This document shows, piece by piece, positions 1-6,689 of a stretch of DNA of 64,000 bases. How positions within the stretch are numbered: position 1 is the first letter of the stretch; every line of letters begins with the position of its first letter. A program made the translations under genes and the position numbers. The stretch spans positions 1-64,000 of the forward strand of contig JBPGPT010000036.1 of NCBI GenBank assembly GCA_051047955.1, written 5' to 3'. The notes under the pieces are model-generated. The model worked only from the letters and a program-made list of their open reading frames with translations, did not search any database and had not been told where the DNA came from. Origin of the DNA: Cystobasidiomycetes sp. EMM_F5 (Eukaryota).

Positions 1-2770
1 AATCGTAACGAATCTGGCGAAGGAATGGGCCGAGCTTCAGCAACCAACGGACATAACGGACACCGCAGATAGACTCCAGCATCGTCTGCGGAATATATCT
101 CAGCCATTGGTACGCTATGCGGCCGGCATGAGGAGCAAGGGATTGACGGACATTGTCATGCTCGAGGTGCTAGACCGGAAGAACAGACGCAATACCTGCA
201 AGCTATTCCATACGCCCATAGCTATATGGGACGCTATCCTCAAAAAAGTCAGGACAGCTTGGCTTCGTCGAGCCCGTCGGGCAGAGTATGTCAAGACCCT
301 TGCCGACTATGTACACCCGCTCGTGCCGGTCACCATTGTCGATCCGGATGAGAGTGCCGTCGACGAAAATGGCAATACTATCACTATCGAGCGGAAGCAC
401 ATGTCTGTTCTCAACTACATCAAGGAGCTGGTATTAAACTCCACGTACGACACGACCTGCGCAGCCGATGCTCCGTCGTTGGCCGCCATTCTTCCAGATA
501 GCCGCACGGCACTCGTAACCGACATCAGAAAACTGCTCCGACTTCGCCGACGTCTAGTGCCGACTGTAGGCACGCATGCTACTCTCGACGGCGTGCTGTG
601 CGGCCACTACGTCCATTTCCCAGCCAAGTTTGCTGTTCCCTTTTTTGGTGCACTGGGCCATTCGTTTACCATTGTAAGTTCGACATGAGCTTTTTTGACG
701 ATATACTAACATTGATTACATCAGAACTACAAGCCGCAGAAGATTCCCATGGACGCAAAATGGCTAATGTGGTGCATCAGGAATGGCGTAGTGCACGTCG
801 AGAGGATGGCTCACTGGATCAGCAAACACTGGCTCCTCGTATCCCACCATCTACACCTGGCCAATCGTCACTTGTACAACGACGAAGCGACAGCAACGCC
901 AACGCTGTTCGAAACTCTACGGTGCTTCCGACGTGGTCCCGGGCACGTCACCGTACAAGAACTTCATCATCAGGGAACCCTCGGGCCCGAATTAGCCGTT
1001 TGTGAGAACTGGGCAACGAGGATGAAAAGATATGTACAGGAGGTGCAGGACGCAGTCGAGGTGGTGGACGTGGTCAGGGAAGCTGCCGCCAAGCGATTGA
1101 CTATTTTCGACACAGTCTTCAAGCACGTCCTTCCGAGAGGCGACATCTGGGCCGGCTCGTTTGAGTTTGACGGCCAGGAGATCTGTTTTCGGTCAATCAA
1201 CGTGATGCAGGGCCACATTAGCGATACCTGGCTTGCCAAGCTTGACCTTCCGCATGACGTTGAGGAATGCCGTGTCGACACCGTGTTTCTTGCGCTCCTC
1301 CAGCATGCATCCACCTTTGGCAAGGTTGAAGAGGTGAAGCGTTGCAAGCATATGGGACAAGGCTACAGACGCAATCTCCGCAATCCTCAACCGCAGAAGG
1401 CAGGGCAACCGGCCGATGGCCACTCTTACAGAATCTTCAGTACACTAGAGTGGCTATCTGGTGGTAAATCGCGTTGGCAGTTTGATGAGGCTGGAGACCC
1501 TAACGCTCGATATCGTGGAGCTCGCCCATTTGTCCGACTGAACAAGCCCCCGGCACAAGAGCGTACCAAAAAAGGCCTACCGGTGGGCCTCGACATACTG
1601 TCAGCCAGCTCTGCAATCGACATTGGCGACAGTATGCGACAGCTAGTGGACGGGCGTGACGCTGATGCAGAAGACGACGACAAAGAGTATCTTCGGCGTC
1701 TCCGTATCGCTGGCAACGACCTTGGCCTGGTTGTGCCGAGTGCTATCGCAATCAATAGTCCCGTGTGTGCCGCACAGCAACCGGAAGCGCAAGGTGTGCA
1801 ATTGCAAAACAACACTTCCATCACGATGATTTTGCGAGCCACTGATCTCCAAGAGCAAATCCGTCGGCGGACGTCCTTCAAACATTACTTGCGCAACAAC
1901 CATTACATCCGGATCGACACAATTCGCAAAGATCCCTCGCTCGAATTTGCTCAAAATTTGTGGAAGATGCATGCACTCCATGAACAGCTGGTGCAGTCAT
2001 CTCCCGCATATGAGATGAACTCCCATCTACATCGCCGACAACGACGCTCTATCGAAGACAGAATATTTCACCAGTTCTGCAAGGTGGCATTTCCTCGCGG
2101 CGAGAAGTCTCTACCCCTCCTGTTCGTCGTCGGCGACTCGTGTGGCTTAACATCGAAAGGAGCGGCTCGCAAAACGGCAGACTTTGCGAATCCGATCTTT
2201 GTCATGTTGCGCAAAAAGTGCCTCGACAACAAGATGCCGATCCGGTTTGTTCTGGTCAACGAAGCCTTTAGTAGTCAAGTCTGTCCCAATCCGTCATGCT
2301 TCAACGAGCGAATACCACCTCAACCGCCAAAGTCGGACAAGCGGAAAAACAACGACAAATGCACTCAGCATGCACCGCGTCGTACGCCAGCCGGTGCTTG
2401 CTTGCGAGGTCGCAGTCGGTGAGTCCGATGCATTCGGTCTATAGAACAACGCTGAATGCAATTCTCGCCACAGCCTGTTCAAGGCTTTCTGGTCTGGTAC
2501 AATAGACCCGTGTCAACGCGTGTTGCAGTGTGAGACCTGTAATAAGGCCTATCACCGTGATGCCTCGGCCGCGATGAATATAGCATTCATCGCTTGGCAC
2601 ATATTGAGGTTTGGGCGTCATCCGTGGTTCGAGGAACACACGGTTCAAACGTGAGCAATAGAGAAATTCATTGAACGCAGAGCGGTCAACTACCGGCTCG
2701 AGCTAGCTCGTGGCTGGGGTACATCTAGACAACGCTCTTGCGTCGCCCTTACGGCAGCAAACCTGTTTAC
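1..2770 (+). mobile_element. Probable right part of a Fanzor-carrying transposable element (left end and any transposase lie outside the window)
   Basis: Inference from the Fanzor gene plus 3' structured RNA. No TIR or TSD can be verified because only one end is visible; the right boundary is approximate. Confidence 0.4.
2..2654 (+). CDS. Fanzor (TnpB-family RNA-guided endonuclease, probably Fanzor1), 5'-partial; 3 visible exons: <2-673, 725-2418, 2474-2654 (848 aa visible)
   Basis: Frame is open from base 2. Intron 674-724 (GTAAGT..ACTAAC..CAG) and intron 2419-2473 (GTGAGT..GCTGAA..CAG) splice in frame. Motifs: RuvC-I IAGNDLGLVVP (D at 1718-1720), bridge-helix-like RRQRRSIEDRIF, LFVVGD, VLVNEAFSSQVCPNPSC (E at 2261-2263), CETC, HRDASAAMNI (D at 2559-2561), FGRHPW, stop TGA 2652-2654. 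Confidence 0.9.
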
Positions 2771-2802
2771 AATAATCCGATACGTTGTTTTTTGCTTGCG
2801 AC
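2655..2802 (+). ncRNA. Candidate Fanzor omegaRNA (scaffold plus 3' guide; ends uncertain)
   Basis: Outer stem ACGCAGAGCG 2675-2684 / CGCTC(T)TGCGT 2733-2743. Inner hairpin 2693-2717: CCGGCT/GGCTGG with G-U pairs around the palindrome CGAGCTAGCTCG. Small hairpin GCC-CTTAC-GGC 2745-2755. Position just 3' of the ORF matches known TnpB/Fanzor omegaRNA loci. Confidence 0.6.
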
Positions 2803-2880
2803 AATCTACTCGTCAGGTCAGCCAAGCTGAACGATGGTCAGCACTGACGGTCAATGACGGGAGTGCAAGTATGCCGACAG

Positions 2881-3777
2881 CTTGAAGAGGTGCTTTGACG
2901 TGGTCGACGCAGAGCCAGCATCACCCAACACCGTCAAGCCGTGCATCTTTTGCGACGTTTCCACGGAGAAGGGCTTCAATGTGGTCCATAAAGTGCGCGA
3001 ATGAACGACCATTTGCCTGCGAGTCGGCTGCTGATGCACGACTTTCAGGATGACAAGTATACCGTCTTTCGCGACAGAAGCCCTGGGGCGCGTCTCCACT
3101 TGCTGACCGTTCCAAACAAGCATATTGGTGCGACCTCTCCTCAGAAGCTGACAGCTGAATGCAATACTGACCCACTCTGCTAACAGCTAACGTCAAGTCT
3201 CTGACTCCGCTCGATGTGCCCATGCGTACGTCTTCTCCAAACAGACGTGCCGCAACCGTACTCAGAGAGAACTGATGTACAGTCTCGACATACAGTCAAC
3301 GAGATGGGCGTTCTGGCAAATCAGCTGCTTGAGGACGAAGGCTATGCGAAGTCGCAGAGGAGGTCCGTGGGCTCGACGAATCTCTGTAGCGGTTTGGTTT
3401 CATGCTAAGTATTGGCACAAACTTCAAGGCTAGGCTTCCATATTCCCCCGTCAGTCTCCACGAAGACCCATACAAGGCAGTAGGCTCATCACTGTTGCTC
3501 CTCGCTACATCATCTTCCTATATTGACAGTTTCTACTCGGTATGCTTTGACTACATAAGGCTGCGCTAGTTTACGGCTGACACCCATCTACCTCGGATAG
3601 GTTGATCATCTCCATTTGCACGTCTTTGGCCTGCCATTCCTAAGCATCGTAGACAAGATCAAGTATCGGCCATCCTACATCAAGTCTCGCACCAAGGGCC
3701 TGTCTCACTTTATTGCACTAGAACAAGCGATACGAATACTGGAAGCTGGGAAGAAGGTTTCGGTCATGCCGTGCTAG
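2881..3777 (+). CDS. HIT-family nucleotide hydrolase (HINT3-like), multi-exon; start codon not resolved
   Basis: Spliced motifs CIFCDV, FRDRSPGARLHLLTVPNKHI, GFHIPP-FYS-VDHLHLHVFGLPF (histidine triad); stop TAG 3775-3777; 10-nt microexon at 3530-3539. Confidence 0.85.
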
Positions 3778-3873
3778 CGTATTCGCACCTCGTCGTTTCC
3801 CCAAGTACAGTCAATAGTATGGCATTTCATGTTAGTTGGCCTCCATGAGTTCGCGTTGTTCAAACTCGTCGTC

Positions 3874-5374
3874 ATGGGCGAAAAGCGCAAAGGACATGCG
3901 GACGGCGCGCAAGGACACGCAAAGAAGCGGAGATTCATTGCAGCTGCGCACAAGATGCAGGCTCGAGGTGGTGAGATTCGTGGACCCGGCCTGTGGATAA
4001 CCTGCGACCGTCGGAAGGAAGGCAGGGCCGTCACGGAAGCGTACGATATCCTGAACGAGGTGCGTCGGTGCCGCGCTGTGTCGATATGTCGGCGCTGGGC
4101 AGACTGAACGTTGATATCGTTCGTTTCGAAAATGCAATACGTTTCCAGGCCGCAGACAAGCTGTATCCGAGGAAGGACTCGACGGCTGACGGCGACCACA
4201 CGAATACGAGCGACGGCGACGACGTCGAGGAATCCATCGAAGATCAAATCGCCCGAGAGCTCGAGTTGATCCAGTCAAAAGATGGGAAGGAGAATACCAT
4301 GCGGTTTCAGAGCGTCAAGACCGATACCGAATGTCGTGAGTATTGCGGAATTGCTAATACGATCTATCCTGTGTACTGAATATGTTACTACAGTAATTTG
4401 GATATCCTGTCTTCCCCCTTGTAATCCAATACAATTAACGACGCATATCGTGAACGAGCTGCAGAACGGAGGCCCTGCGAGGACAAAGTCAGTATCTCGA
4501 TACTCAGTGTGACTTTCAGTGATGCTGCTGAATTCTTCATATTGAAGACATCTTCAGCGTATCACTCCAGTCAGCGCAACATGTCAAGCAACGCCCGAAG
4601 CACTCCGTTTGATGGCCTACCGGATTCTGCAAGCGACATTTGCGCCTCTAGATTACACGGAAGAGCAAAGAGCTGAAGATGAATTTATTACCGTGCGTAA
4701 AACTCCGTTGTCCTGTCTCAAATGACTTTGCTGAGAGTGTCAAGTACCAGTATCGAATTGAACCATTTCTCCGAAATCATTCTGGCTCGCTTAGTCGGGA
4801 TATTATCCTCCATACTATTGGATCAGTTGTCCGCGACTTGACAACAGCGTCTTTCCAGTATCCGGAGAAGATGTCGGAAATTGCAACTATTACCAATGCT
4901 GATGGGGGACCGAAATCTGCCAGCGGCGATGCAGACAAACAAGACTCGCCAAAACATGAGAATGTTGCGGAATCCGAAGGTGTCACCAATGGAAACCTGG
5001 ATGCCAGTATAGGAGCGACCGAGGGCGGAAACGCTAGTGAAACGAAAATAACGTCACTCGAAGGCAGAAACGTCGCAGAAGAGGGAAAAGTTCTGGGCGG
5101 AGATGCCTCTGCCGATGCGGTCCTTGACGAGAATCCCAGCACCTCAAGCATGTCAGGGAGGCCTAGACTTCCGGAAGCTCGTCGGAAAACAAAAGTCGAC
5201 CTAAAACATCCCAAATATACTATTCTAGTCTCAGCTTTGAAGGGCGTATGTGGACTCTCAATCGTGGAAGGATTTGAGGAGAGCCGGAGATTTAACATTC
5301 AGGTGTTGAGCGAGAAAAAGGTGCAACAAAAACCACCAACCGCTGCGCAAGCCGAAACTCCAATAGAAGCCTGA
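3874..5374 (+). CDS. TAN1: THUMP-domain tRNA-modification adaptor (Tan1/THUMPD1-like)
   Basis: GPGLWITCDRRKEGRAVTEAYDILNE, SIEDQIARELE, YRIEPFLRNH, KVDLKHPKYTILVSALKGVCGLSIV..RFNI; several short GT-AG introns. Confidence 0.8.
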
Positions 5375-5581
5375 CCGCGTCGGCCGCCTTTCTCCCCAAT
5401 GATAACAGACCGCATATAGTCCTATCTTCCTAATATCTAAATAACATGTTGTCGTGCGATACTCTGATGCCACCCTTTCTCGGGATATCCGTTTCGCGCC
5501 TGAAAATTGGCCTACCTGTCAACATAGCTATGCTTTGCCCGACCTATGACCCTGCTAATCGATTTCTCGTGCTCACTATTT

Positions 5582-6689
5582 CTACATGTAAGGCGACGGC
5601 GAAGCGGGAAGGCCTCTAATGAAGGCATCATCGAGGCTGAGGTATGCCGACCCCTTAGTATCCTCTGTTGAGGGCACGGCTGTCGAATGAACGGACTCTG
5701 CGGGGCTCGGATACAGCATGCTCGACAGCGGGGAAGGTATTCCTTGATCTCCATTGTGGCGCGAGCTTCTCTTGGCTGATGTCCTACGGTGAGAGGAGCT
5801 CGATGACGAGCCAGCCTGGGACGGCCTTTGGGAACCATACACGGAGGTTGACATCATTGGATTAGATGACGTCAGTGAGAGACTGGAACGCGGCGGAGTG
5901 TACCCTCCCGACATTCCGCCAAGGAAAGAAGCTTCGGGTATGGGTTGAAAGTTGTCAACGTCGTAATTGGTCGATCGAAATGACCGTGTTGAAGATGTCT
6001 GCCATGTGTTGTCAGGCTTCAGAAGATCAAATGATCCGAATCCATCATCTGTAAAGAGCGGGTCCAGACGACTCTGCCGACTTGTCTTGTCCGATCGACG
6101 GTGCATAGGGGTCGTCTCCAAACAAGCGAGGGTTTGAGATTGGCGGCGCTGGCTAGAGGCTTGCATACCAAGGGTATAGCTTCTCTTGCGCGTGCTTGAC
6201 GTGCCTGTGGAGGTGCTGCGGAGGCTTGAGTAGGTAGTTGCGTTCATTGTTGGGAAATACAGATCATCTTTGTAGGTAGTACCAGCTTGAGAGCGCAAAT
6301 GAGAGGCTCTGTAGTAGGAGGATCCTGTTGAGGGCAACGAGTAGGAGTCATAGGCCGATGTTGTTGCGCTGCGATCTGCCCCGCAGTGGCGAGGGGTCAG
6401 TCCGTTGATTTCGAGAGCATTGTCAGACATGGATAATTGGAACAGACTTACCGCTGTTCTTTGAAATGTAGGATGTAGAATGCGACGGTGTATATTGAAA
6501 GGCAGAAGCCTATGTAAGGACTATTCAGCAAGCTGTGGGCATTGTACAGGAAGTTAGATAGCGCACGTTGTTCTCCGTCGGAATGTGCGTTGACAGTCTT
6601 CGGGACTGCCTGTCAGACGTCAAGTCGAAGGACCGGTGGTGAAGCTGATGTGGTGGATCGGCCGTTGGGGCTGAAAAATACGGATCCAT
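5582..6689 (-). CDS. Hypothetical Ser-rich, likely disordered protein (3' end uncertain)
   Basis: Exon starting MDPYFSAPTADPP followed by a 282-aa Ser/Thr-rich ORF; no recognisable domain. Confidence 0.45.

Follow-up and report, generated by a model that had tools for sequence, protein, structure and literature searches.

DNA lying just downstream of a Fanzor gene in the basidiomycete yeast Cystobasidiomycetes sp. EMM_F5 probably encodes the omegaRNA that serves the Fanzor protein. In the reading that we favor, and to which we assign a probability of roughly 85% on the strength of the DNA sequence, the scaffold of this RNA would span positions ∼2675–2795 and be followed, from 2796 onward, by a guide that would steer the Fanzor to empty insertion sites and so maintain or spread the element. 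Positions are those of the window, i.e. the whole stretch of DNA that was analyzed (64,000 nucleotides; contig JBPGPT010000036.1, positions 1–64,000). The RNA is a probable member of the known class of Fanzor omegaRNAs, by analogy with which we infer that it is made, bound by the protein, and used as a guide. The case for the scaffold is carried by comparison between copies and families and not by folding energy, and the system appears unusual through its XPG/FEN1-like N terminus and in being without a visible transposase.

The window begins within the Fanzor gene, the 5' part of which lies on other small contigs. On the + strand, an internal coding exon that is open at the contig start (1..673; frame 2–688) is followed by a GT..AG intron (674..724), an exon (725..2418), a second GT..AG intron (2419..2473), and the last exon (2474..2654). 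This is exactly the splicing of database protein P0004 (806 amino acids; introns 674–724 and 2419–2473), and both intron positions are the same in the two paralogs described below. The exon at 725..2418 encodes the RuvC-I Asp (GNDLG, codon 1718–1720), the RuvC-II Glu (VNEAFSS, codon 2261–2263), and the first zinc-finger cysteines, and the last exon encodes the CETC zinc knuckle and the RuvC-III Asp (HRD, codon 2559–2561). The corresponding residues are Asp514, Glu695, and Asp776, together with four zinc-finger cysteines, and E695, C702, and C707 are invariant across 23 aligned sequences. The preliminary description had placed the scaffold directly downstream of a Fanzor stop codon, and this was borne out: TGA 2652–2654 closes the spliced last exon of a gene with a RuvC triad and a predicted TnpB/Cas12f/Fanzor fold.

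The last exon matches PF07282 with an E-value of 0.00025, which is under the curated cut-off of Pfam. An AlphaFold model of the protein (mean pLDDT 63) gave Cas12f (E 1e-4), SpuFz1 (E 1e-3), and Fanzor2 (E 1.3e-3) as top Foldseek matches, including 9ceu and 8gkh, with the E-values for Cas12f, SpuFz1, and ApmFz2 spanning one order of magnitude. By its D-E-D triad, zinc finger, and modeled TnpB/Cas12f-like fold, the window protein belongs to the Fanzor/TnpB superfamily; its size, introns, and fungal host, rather than a tree, tentatively point to Fanzor1 and not Fanzor2. A HMMER search of 1.84 billion representatives returned 20 proteins, 18 of them distant (26–47% identity across the matched stretches), and a phmmer search of P0003 against PDB sequences, solved Fanzors included, returned no match. 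The RuvC triad is intact in all three Fanzor families of the host, represented by the window and by contigs C113 and C210.

We searched the genome with positions 2500–2900 and obtained seven matches, namely the window itself, two paralogs matching in the coding region, and four contig ends (C253, C187, C205, and C195) that match the window over 55–77 nt. All five copies are identical up to GTTGTTTTTTGC, which ends at 2795, and diverge from 2796, the flank being different in each of the five. The interiors of the other four copies, which sit at contig ends, are not separately visible, as is expected if assembly from short reads has collapsed a repeat. The element, of which there are at least five copies, ends on its right side at position 2795, the last base that the five have in common. 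Its last 1–3 bases could be target-derived; according to passages of one report, a few terminal bases of Fanzor2 elements may come from the target (PMC10711439). In the C113 family, a second end copy, on C215, diverges at the equivalent base (2/2 copies in that family).

Because the five copies split at 2796, we place the end of the predicted scaffold at about 2795, some 35 nt further than first proposed, and the start of the guide at 2796, not near 2760. The preliminary description had drawn on the established location of TnpB/Fanzor omegaRNAs at an element's right end, and this location is supported: the region closes a multi-copy element and comes directly after a Fanzor-type gene. It had also proposed that a drop in identity between genomic copies would mark this end, and the drop was located in five copies. 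The scaffold of ∼2670–2760 that it had put forward, with the next ∼15–20 nt as guide, has to be abandoned in favor of ∼2675–2795: positions 2761–2795 are fixed in 5/5 copies. The predicted guide of the present copy is accordingly flanking host DNA (2796..2812, +), for which a length of 14–20 nt is assumed from studied Fanzors. No RNA run was listed among the public sequencing runs that contain the region, and in three runs only short pieces of it were found, none of them across 2795.

Beyond the element lies a host gene resembling HIT/DcpS (2871..3771, +; PF11969, E 0.0008, under the cut-off), the start codon of which is 76 nt past the element end; the predicted guide of the window copy thus falls in the 5' leader or promoter of this gene. 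We considered whether insertions favor start codons, as four of eight right flanks lie 0–140 nt before a co-directional host gene, and rejected the idea since the compactness of the genome suffices to account for this number. An ATG in the C215 flank was likewise rejected as a start codon, being out of frame.

The structure predicted for the scaffold consists of two stems with a small hairpin between them. Stem-loop 1 (2675..2743, +) has a core of 7 bp in which 2677–2683 pair with 2734–2741 around a bulged base at 2739, and its long, family-specific interior (2685–2730) contains the hairpin at 2693–2717; the pair probability of stem 1 in the window is 0.86–0.93 across 5/5 flank contexts. It is followed by the small GCC/GGC hairpin (2745..2755, +), the pair probability of which ranges from 0.00 to 0.91, and by AGCA (2756–2759), which is conserved. 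In the predicted terminal stem (2757..2795, +), 2757–2761 would pair with 2791–2795, so that the stem closes at the element end; on its own its pair probability is 0.00–0.18 in all contexts. Most of these pairings had been proposed beforehand and were recovered where proposed, namely the 10-bp outer stem with one bulge (2675–2684 with 2733–2743), its extension (2685–87 with 2728–30), the two hairpins, and the T6 run (2788–2793). A further suggested pairing of 2754–61 with 2791–99 survives as the five pairs of the terminal stem, which lie inside the element and have counterparts in the paralogs; the part reaching into 2796–99 falls away, as this is flank that differs in 4/5 copies and pairs with a probability of 0.00–0.07.

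Folding energy adds little to this picture. The interval 2655–2802 had been expected to fold better than shuffled controls and does not: its z-score is −0.85 on the + strand, where 44 of 200 shuffles fold equally well, and −0.13 on the − strand, so that the earlier argument that G-U pairs favor the + strand is weak as far as folding goes. The scaffold itself (2674–2795) gave z −0.57 (131/500 shuffles as good) and the paralog ends z +0.6 to +0.8; stem-loop 1 (2674–2744), an interval chosen after the fold was known, gave z −2.74 (7/500). A search of positions 2300–3100 against Rfam at E≤10 returned no match.

The comparison with paralogous families is more telling. Two more Fanzor families are found in the genome, with proteins 43% (C113) and 42% (C210) identical to that of the window; these two paralogs are 88% alike, and the three families therefore amount to about two independent lineages. 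In a motif block after the stop codons, 20 of 29 columns are identical across the three. When the C113 block is compared without gaps to every position of the 64-kb window, it fits best at 2731 (21/29; next best, 19). By hand alignment, stem 1 forms seven Watson-Crick pairs around one bulge at 3/3 loci, and at each locus its 3' arm has a single Watson-Crick partner upstream, where ∼0.004 would be expected. At pair 3, A-U in the window corresponds to C-G in the two paralogs; the bulged base is U, U, and C across the three loci, and the interior is 50 nt long in the window and 17–19 nt in the paralogs; the pair probability of stem 1 is 0.97 in C210 and 0.35 in C113. Hairpin 2 pairs GCC with GGC or GGU, GGU being the form in the paralogs. 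The five predicted pairs of the terminal stem are complementary in the four ends examined, with two positions changing on both sides, around an interior of 29 nt in the window, 10–11 nt in C113, and 8 nt in C210. The distance from stop codon to element end is 141 nt in the window and 87 and 98 nt in the paralogs.

Conservation at homologous Fanzor loci, which had been anticipated, was thus seen in that the core is kept in two paralogous families. The covariance analysis that had been proposed gave a divided answer: the core is kept with one compensatory pair in stem 1, but a covariance model of the two paralog ends, which ranked the window locus first of six in the window, did so at E 0.99 and with stem 1 mis-paired. 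A distant metagenomic homolog (L028), the one distant homolog with DNA, has no evident similarity past its stop codon; the hairpins formed by its 170-nt tail do not resemble those of the window. A search for more homologous loci returned none from viral contigs and one locus among 69 pattern matches from a metagenome scan. A contig assembled from public runs over 2499–2753 differs from the window at 10 positions, of which eight are listed, and the two listed changes within the scaffold, at a depth of 2.6 that makes them weak evidence, are both at unpaired positions of the predicted fold. The assignment of contigs C7 and C137 to the C113 family was rejected: at the DNA level, C161 and the ends of C194 are similar to the C210 locus, and C7 and C137 are not.

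The same conservation might instead reflect a DNA signal, i.e. subterminal hairpins, a site for a mobilization protein, or a 3'-UTR element, on the model of Helitron2 or IS200/605 ends. Transposase-binding DNA would likewise have conserved ends, folding is not significant over the whole interval, hairpins mark the candidate left end too, and an 11-nt word recurs in direct orientation at both ends of the C210 copy. We nevertheless consider this explanation quite unlikely: in the paralogs, pairing of hairpin 2 and of the terminal stem is preserved via G-U, which suits RNA, the 7-bp stem 1 and the length and position of the region agree with described Fz1 omegaRNAs, and the nuclease triad is intact in three families. 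The two roles, DNA signal and guide scaffold, may also coexist.

Very unlikely, in our estimate, is a scaffold that ends at ∼2760 and is followed by a fixed guide inside the element, or a variant in which the first exon of the element's own gene is targeted by 2782–2795, be it as fixed guide or as antisense. Between-family conservation is indeed strongest up to 2759, and 2782–2795 exactly matches, in reverse complement, a first-exon stretch on C137 (L048 162–175), which is probably the first exon of the same family's gene as that in the window. However, the identity of 2761–2795 in 5/5 copies while the flank varies argues against a guide in this position, and the paralogs retain CCTGTT/GTTGT-like words and the terminal complementarity, yet are 16–20 nt shorter. 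The 14-nt match is moreover of low complexity and was spotted after the fact (in controls, 60 of 3,044 windows, ∼2%, and 15 of 60,987 positions, 2.5e-4), and the C210 family is without an equivalent exon match, its best inverted match in the 5' region being 9 nt long and located elsewhere. That the structure arose by chance in the 3'-UTR of a gene that has decayed or been domesticated, as z-scores near zero and the lack of an Rfam match might suggest, is hardly credible in view of five identical copies with a sharp boundary, a motif and pairing common to proteins just 42% identical, and an intact reading frame with its catalytic residues.

The guide-scaffold reading agrees in most respects with what is described of studied Fanzor1 systems. 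In the relevant passages of two reports, Fz1 omegaRNAs are 75–150 nt long, with a constant 7-bp first stem-loop in three structures and a variable region toward the guide (PMC11423790), and a 75-nt conserved end is followed by 14–15 variable nt serving as guide, the distal part of the guide-adjacent stem being dispensable (PMC10432273). As in the accounts given there of SpuFz1, PpFz1, and GtFz1, we find a non-coding stretch from stop codon to element end, a 7-bp first stem, a predicted guide-adjacent stem of variable length, a variable flank in the place of the guide, an intact RuvC, and a fungal host, and the stop-to-end distances of the window and both paralogs fall in the Fz1 range of 75–150 nt. 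Unlike the solved Fanzor1 omegaRNAs, as far as those descriptions go, the present scaffold has an extra small hairpin between the stems and is ∼120 nt long; unlike in the Fanzor1 systems covered, no terminal inverted repeat was found here, and unlike SpuFz1 (∼630 amino acids), the protein has ∼1,500 amino acids with an XPG/FEN1-like N terminus.

Under the guide-scaffold reading, a transcript crossing the element end would be trimmed to the scaffold and about 15 nt of flank. Stem-loop 1, through its 7-bp core, would dock onto the RuvC/TNB surface of the protein, the terminal stem would define, at the WED domain, the point where scaffold gives way to guide, and the long stem interiors would be dispensable decoration. 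The guide of each copy would match that copy's own empty insertion site, which the Fanzor would cut beside a motif to its left, and repair from the element-bearing allele would then restore or spread the element. A basidiomycete yeast here provides a Fanzor system amenable to testing, in which the scaffold/guide junction is set by five natural copies, and the two paralogs suggest a minimal scaffold of ∼67 nt compared with ∼120 nt in the window.

The protein that would serve this RNA appears to be a ∼1,500-amino acid Fanzor with an XPG/FEN1-like N terminus. The C210 Fanzor gene runs ∼2.5 kb further upstream of the part equivalent to the window, for a total near 1,500 amino acids, and its first 350 residues contain, in order, MG.., (I/A)DV, (V/L)DN, EAD, (S/I)DSD, and G(H/Q)DY..G..G.G, which we take to be the motifs of the XPG/FEN1 (Rad2) 5'-nuclease superfamily. 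They are seen in the three host families and in L028 (L013 1867–3216, L028 109–1500, L018, L022, L023, L048, and L072). In L028, the XPG-I-like and RuvC frames are connected across one apparent intron, and database model P0003 likewise joins an XPG-I-like part with RuvC. At ∼720 of L028, a frameshift in the N-terminal domain represents either a mutation or an assembly error. The likeness to XPG/FEN1 (Rad2) lies in these ordered motifs, whereas searches of the N-terminal domain against Pfam, PHROGs, PDB sequences, and for homologs gave no significant match. A profile comparison by hhalign that used four XPG-I regions of the host aligned the EAD and DSD motifs, at E 0.058 and a probability of 0.9%. 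Language-model (ESM) neighbors of the N terminus were XPG_I clusters (0.88, to be taken as a lead), and a second query gave no usable match; the predicted fold has a pLDDT of 36, which makes it unusable for structural comparison. Judged by its motifs, which we treat as a lead, the N terminus is likely to have an XPG/FEN1 fold.

A bolder and, to our minds, doubtful proposal is that the fused FEN1/XPG-like and RuvC Fanzor self-mobilizes the ∼11-kb element without a classical transposase. The RNA-guided cut of the target would be followed by flap processing or resection by the N-terminal domain, and copy-in would start at the exact right end and might stop early, leaving 5'-truncated copies and short duplications. 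We found no published work pairing Fanzor with XPG or with Basidiomycota, and the supplements of the 2023 surveys may list such proteins; among titles and abstract openings retrieved for Fanzor with flap endonuclease, Fanzor with FEN1, and TnpB with XPG, no such fusion is described. Were the N-terminal domain an active 5'-nuclease, it would be a natural counterpart of nuclease-plus-exonuclease editors and a handle on transposase-free Fanzor movement, the mobility of Fanzor elements that have fixed 3' and variable 5' ends and lack a transposase having been raised as a question by Bao and Jurka (PMC3627910).

The C210 copy is the one assembled whole, at ∼11 kb with a provisional left end. Upstream of the Fanzor gene, all three families carry an open reading frame, ORF1, encoding an all-helical protein with a lysine-rich tail (L051 736–2233, −; L091 9567–L013 617; L135). 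ORF1 matches no Pfam family and has no homolog outside this genome, so that nothing marks it as a transposase; none was recognized in the ∼11-kb element. Beyond ORF1 lie ∼3.7 kb of non-coding DNA with repeats common to C210 and both C194 ends. The candidate left end, also provisional, is a shared hairpin-rich motif (L091 ∼5795–5840 in C210, and both ends of C194), which in C210 includes a perfect 12-bp inverted repeat besides the 11-nt word that it has in direct orientation with the right end; the best inverted word between these two ends of C210 is 6 nt. The left end of the window family was not located among 104 of the ∼155 small contigs, and no terminal inverted repeat involving the right end was found within positions 1–6000 of the window. 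A search of the genome for the Helitron Rep domain (PF14214) gave no match and is uninformative, as the control was silent too.

At the end of C135 lies a copy of C7 (96%) that begins abruptly within ORF1 (junction L133 1522/1523), after unique host DNA ending in ATG. The dehydrogenase gene upstream of this junction is 57–72% identical to the gene whose ATG start falls exactly at the right junction of C205; it has no match in the other six right flanks tested. The simplest reading of this single case is one 5'-truncated insertion between tandem short-chain dehydrogenase paralogs, at the start codon of one of them, that kept its right end exact and duplicated 3 bp (ATG).

Large Fanzor elements of this kind have been described before. 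In the sections of Bao and Jurka (2013) on these elements, MCi-2A is 10,235 bp long with a 1,375-amino acid Fanzor, and the present element is like MCi-2 of Mucor circinelloides and CRe-1/2/3 of Chlamydomonas in its fixed 3' end, what appear to be variable or truncated 5' ends, the absence of recognized terminal inverted repeats, an apparent target duplication on a truncated copy, and large size (PMC3627910). As given there, the duplications are 7–19 bp or longer in MCi-2 and CRe, compared with the one inferred 3-bp case here, and the CRe elements are Helitron2 derivatives, whereas here the Rep search, uninformative by its control, was blank (PMC3627910). The visible N-terminal part of the MCi-2 protein (∼630 residues) has no XPG-like motifs by eye, and the term XPG does not occur in 14 supplement files of that report, numbers 13 and 14 not being among them (PMC3627910).

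Several minor features of the other copies were also observed. Upstream regions at the two C194 ends (L137 and L138) are only 69% alike and converge on one identical downstream contig, C74, which suggests that element copies have recombined or undergone conversion. Positions 80,425–100,423 of C194 (L142/L139) are rich in ACTGACAATCA-type repeats, with frames that by eye resemble helicase, JmjC, and zinc-finger proteins, and may form a larger mobile region that surrounds one of the element copies. Finally, two families have repeats of a TCTGCATCACGCA-like motif, a possible promoter element, ahead of the Fanzor start codon (L072; L013 1600–1740).
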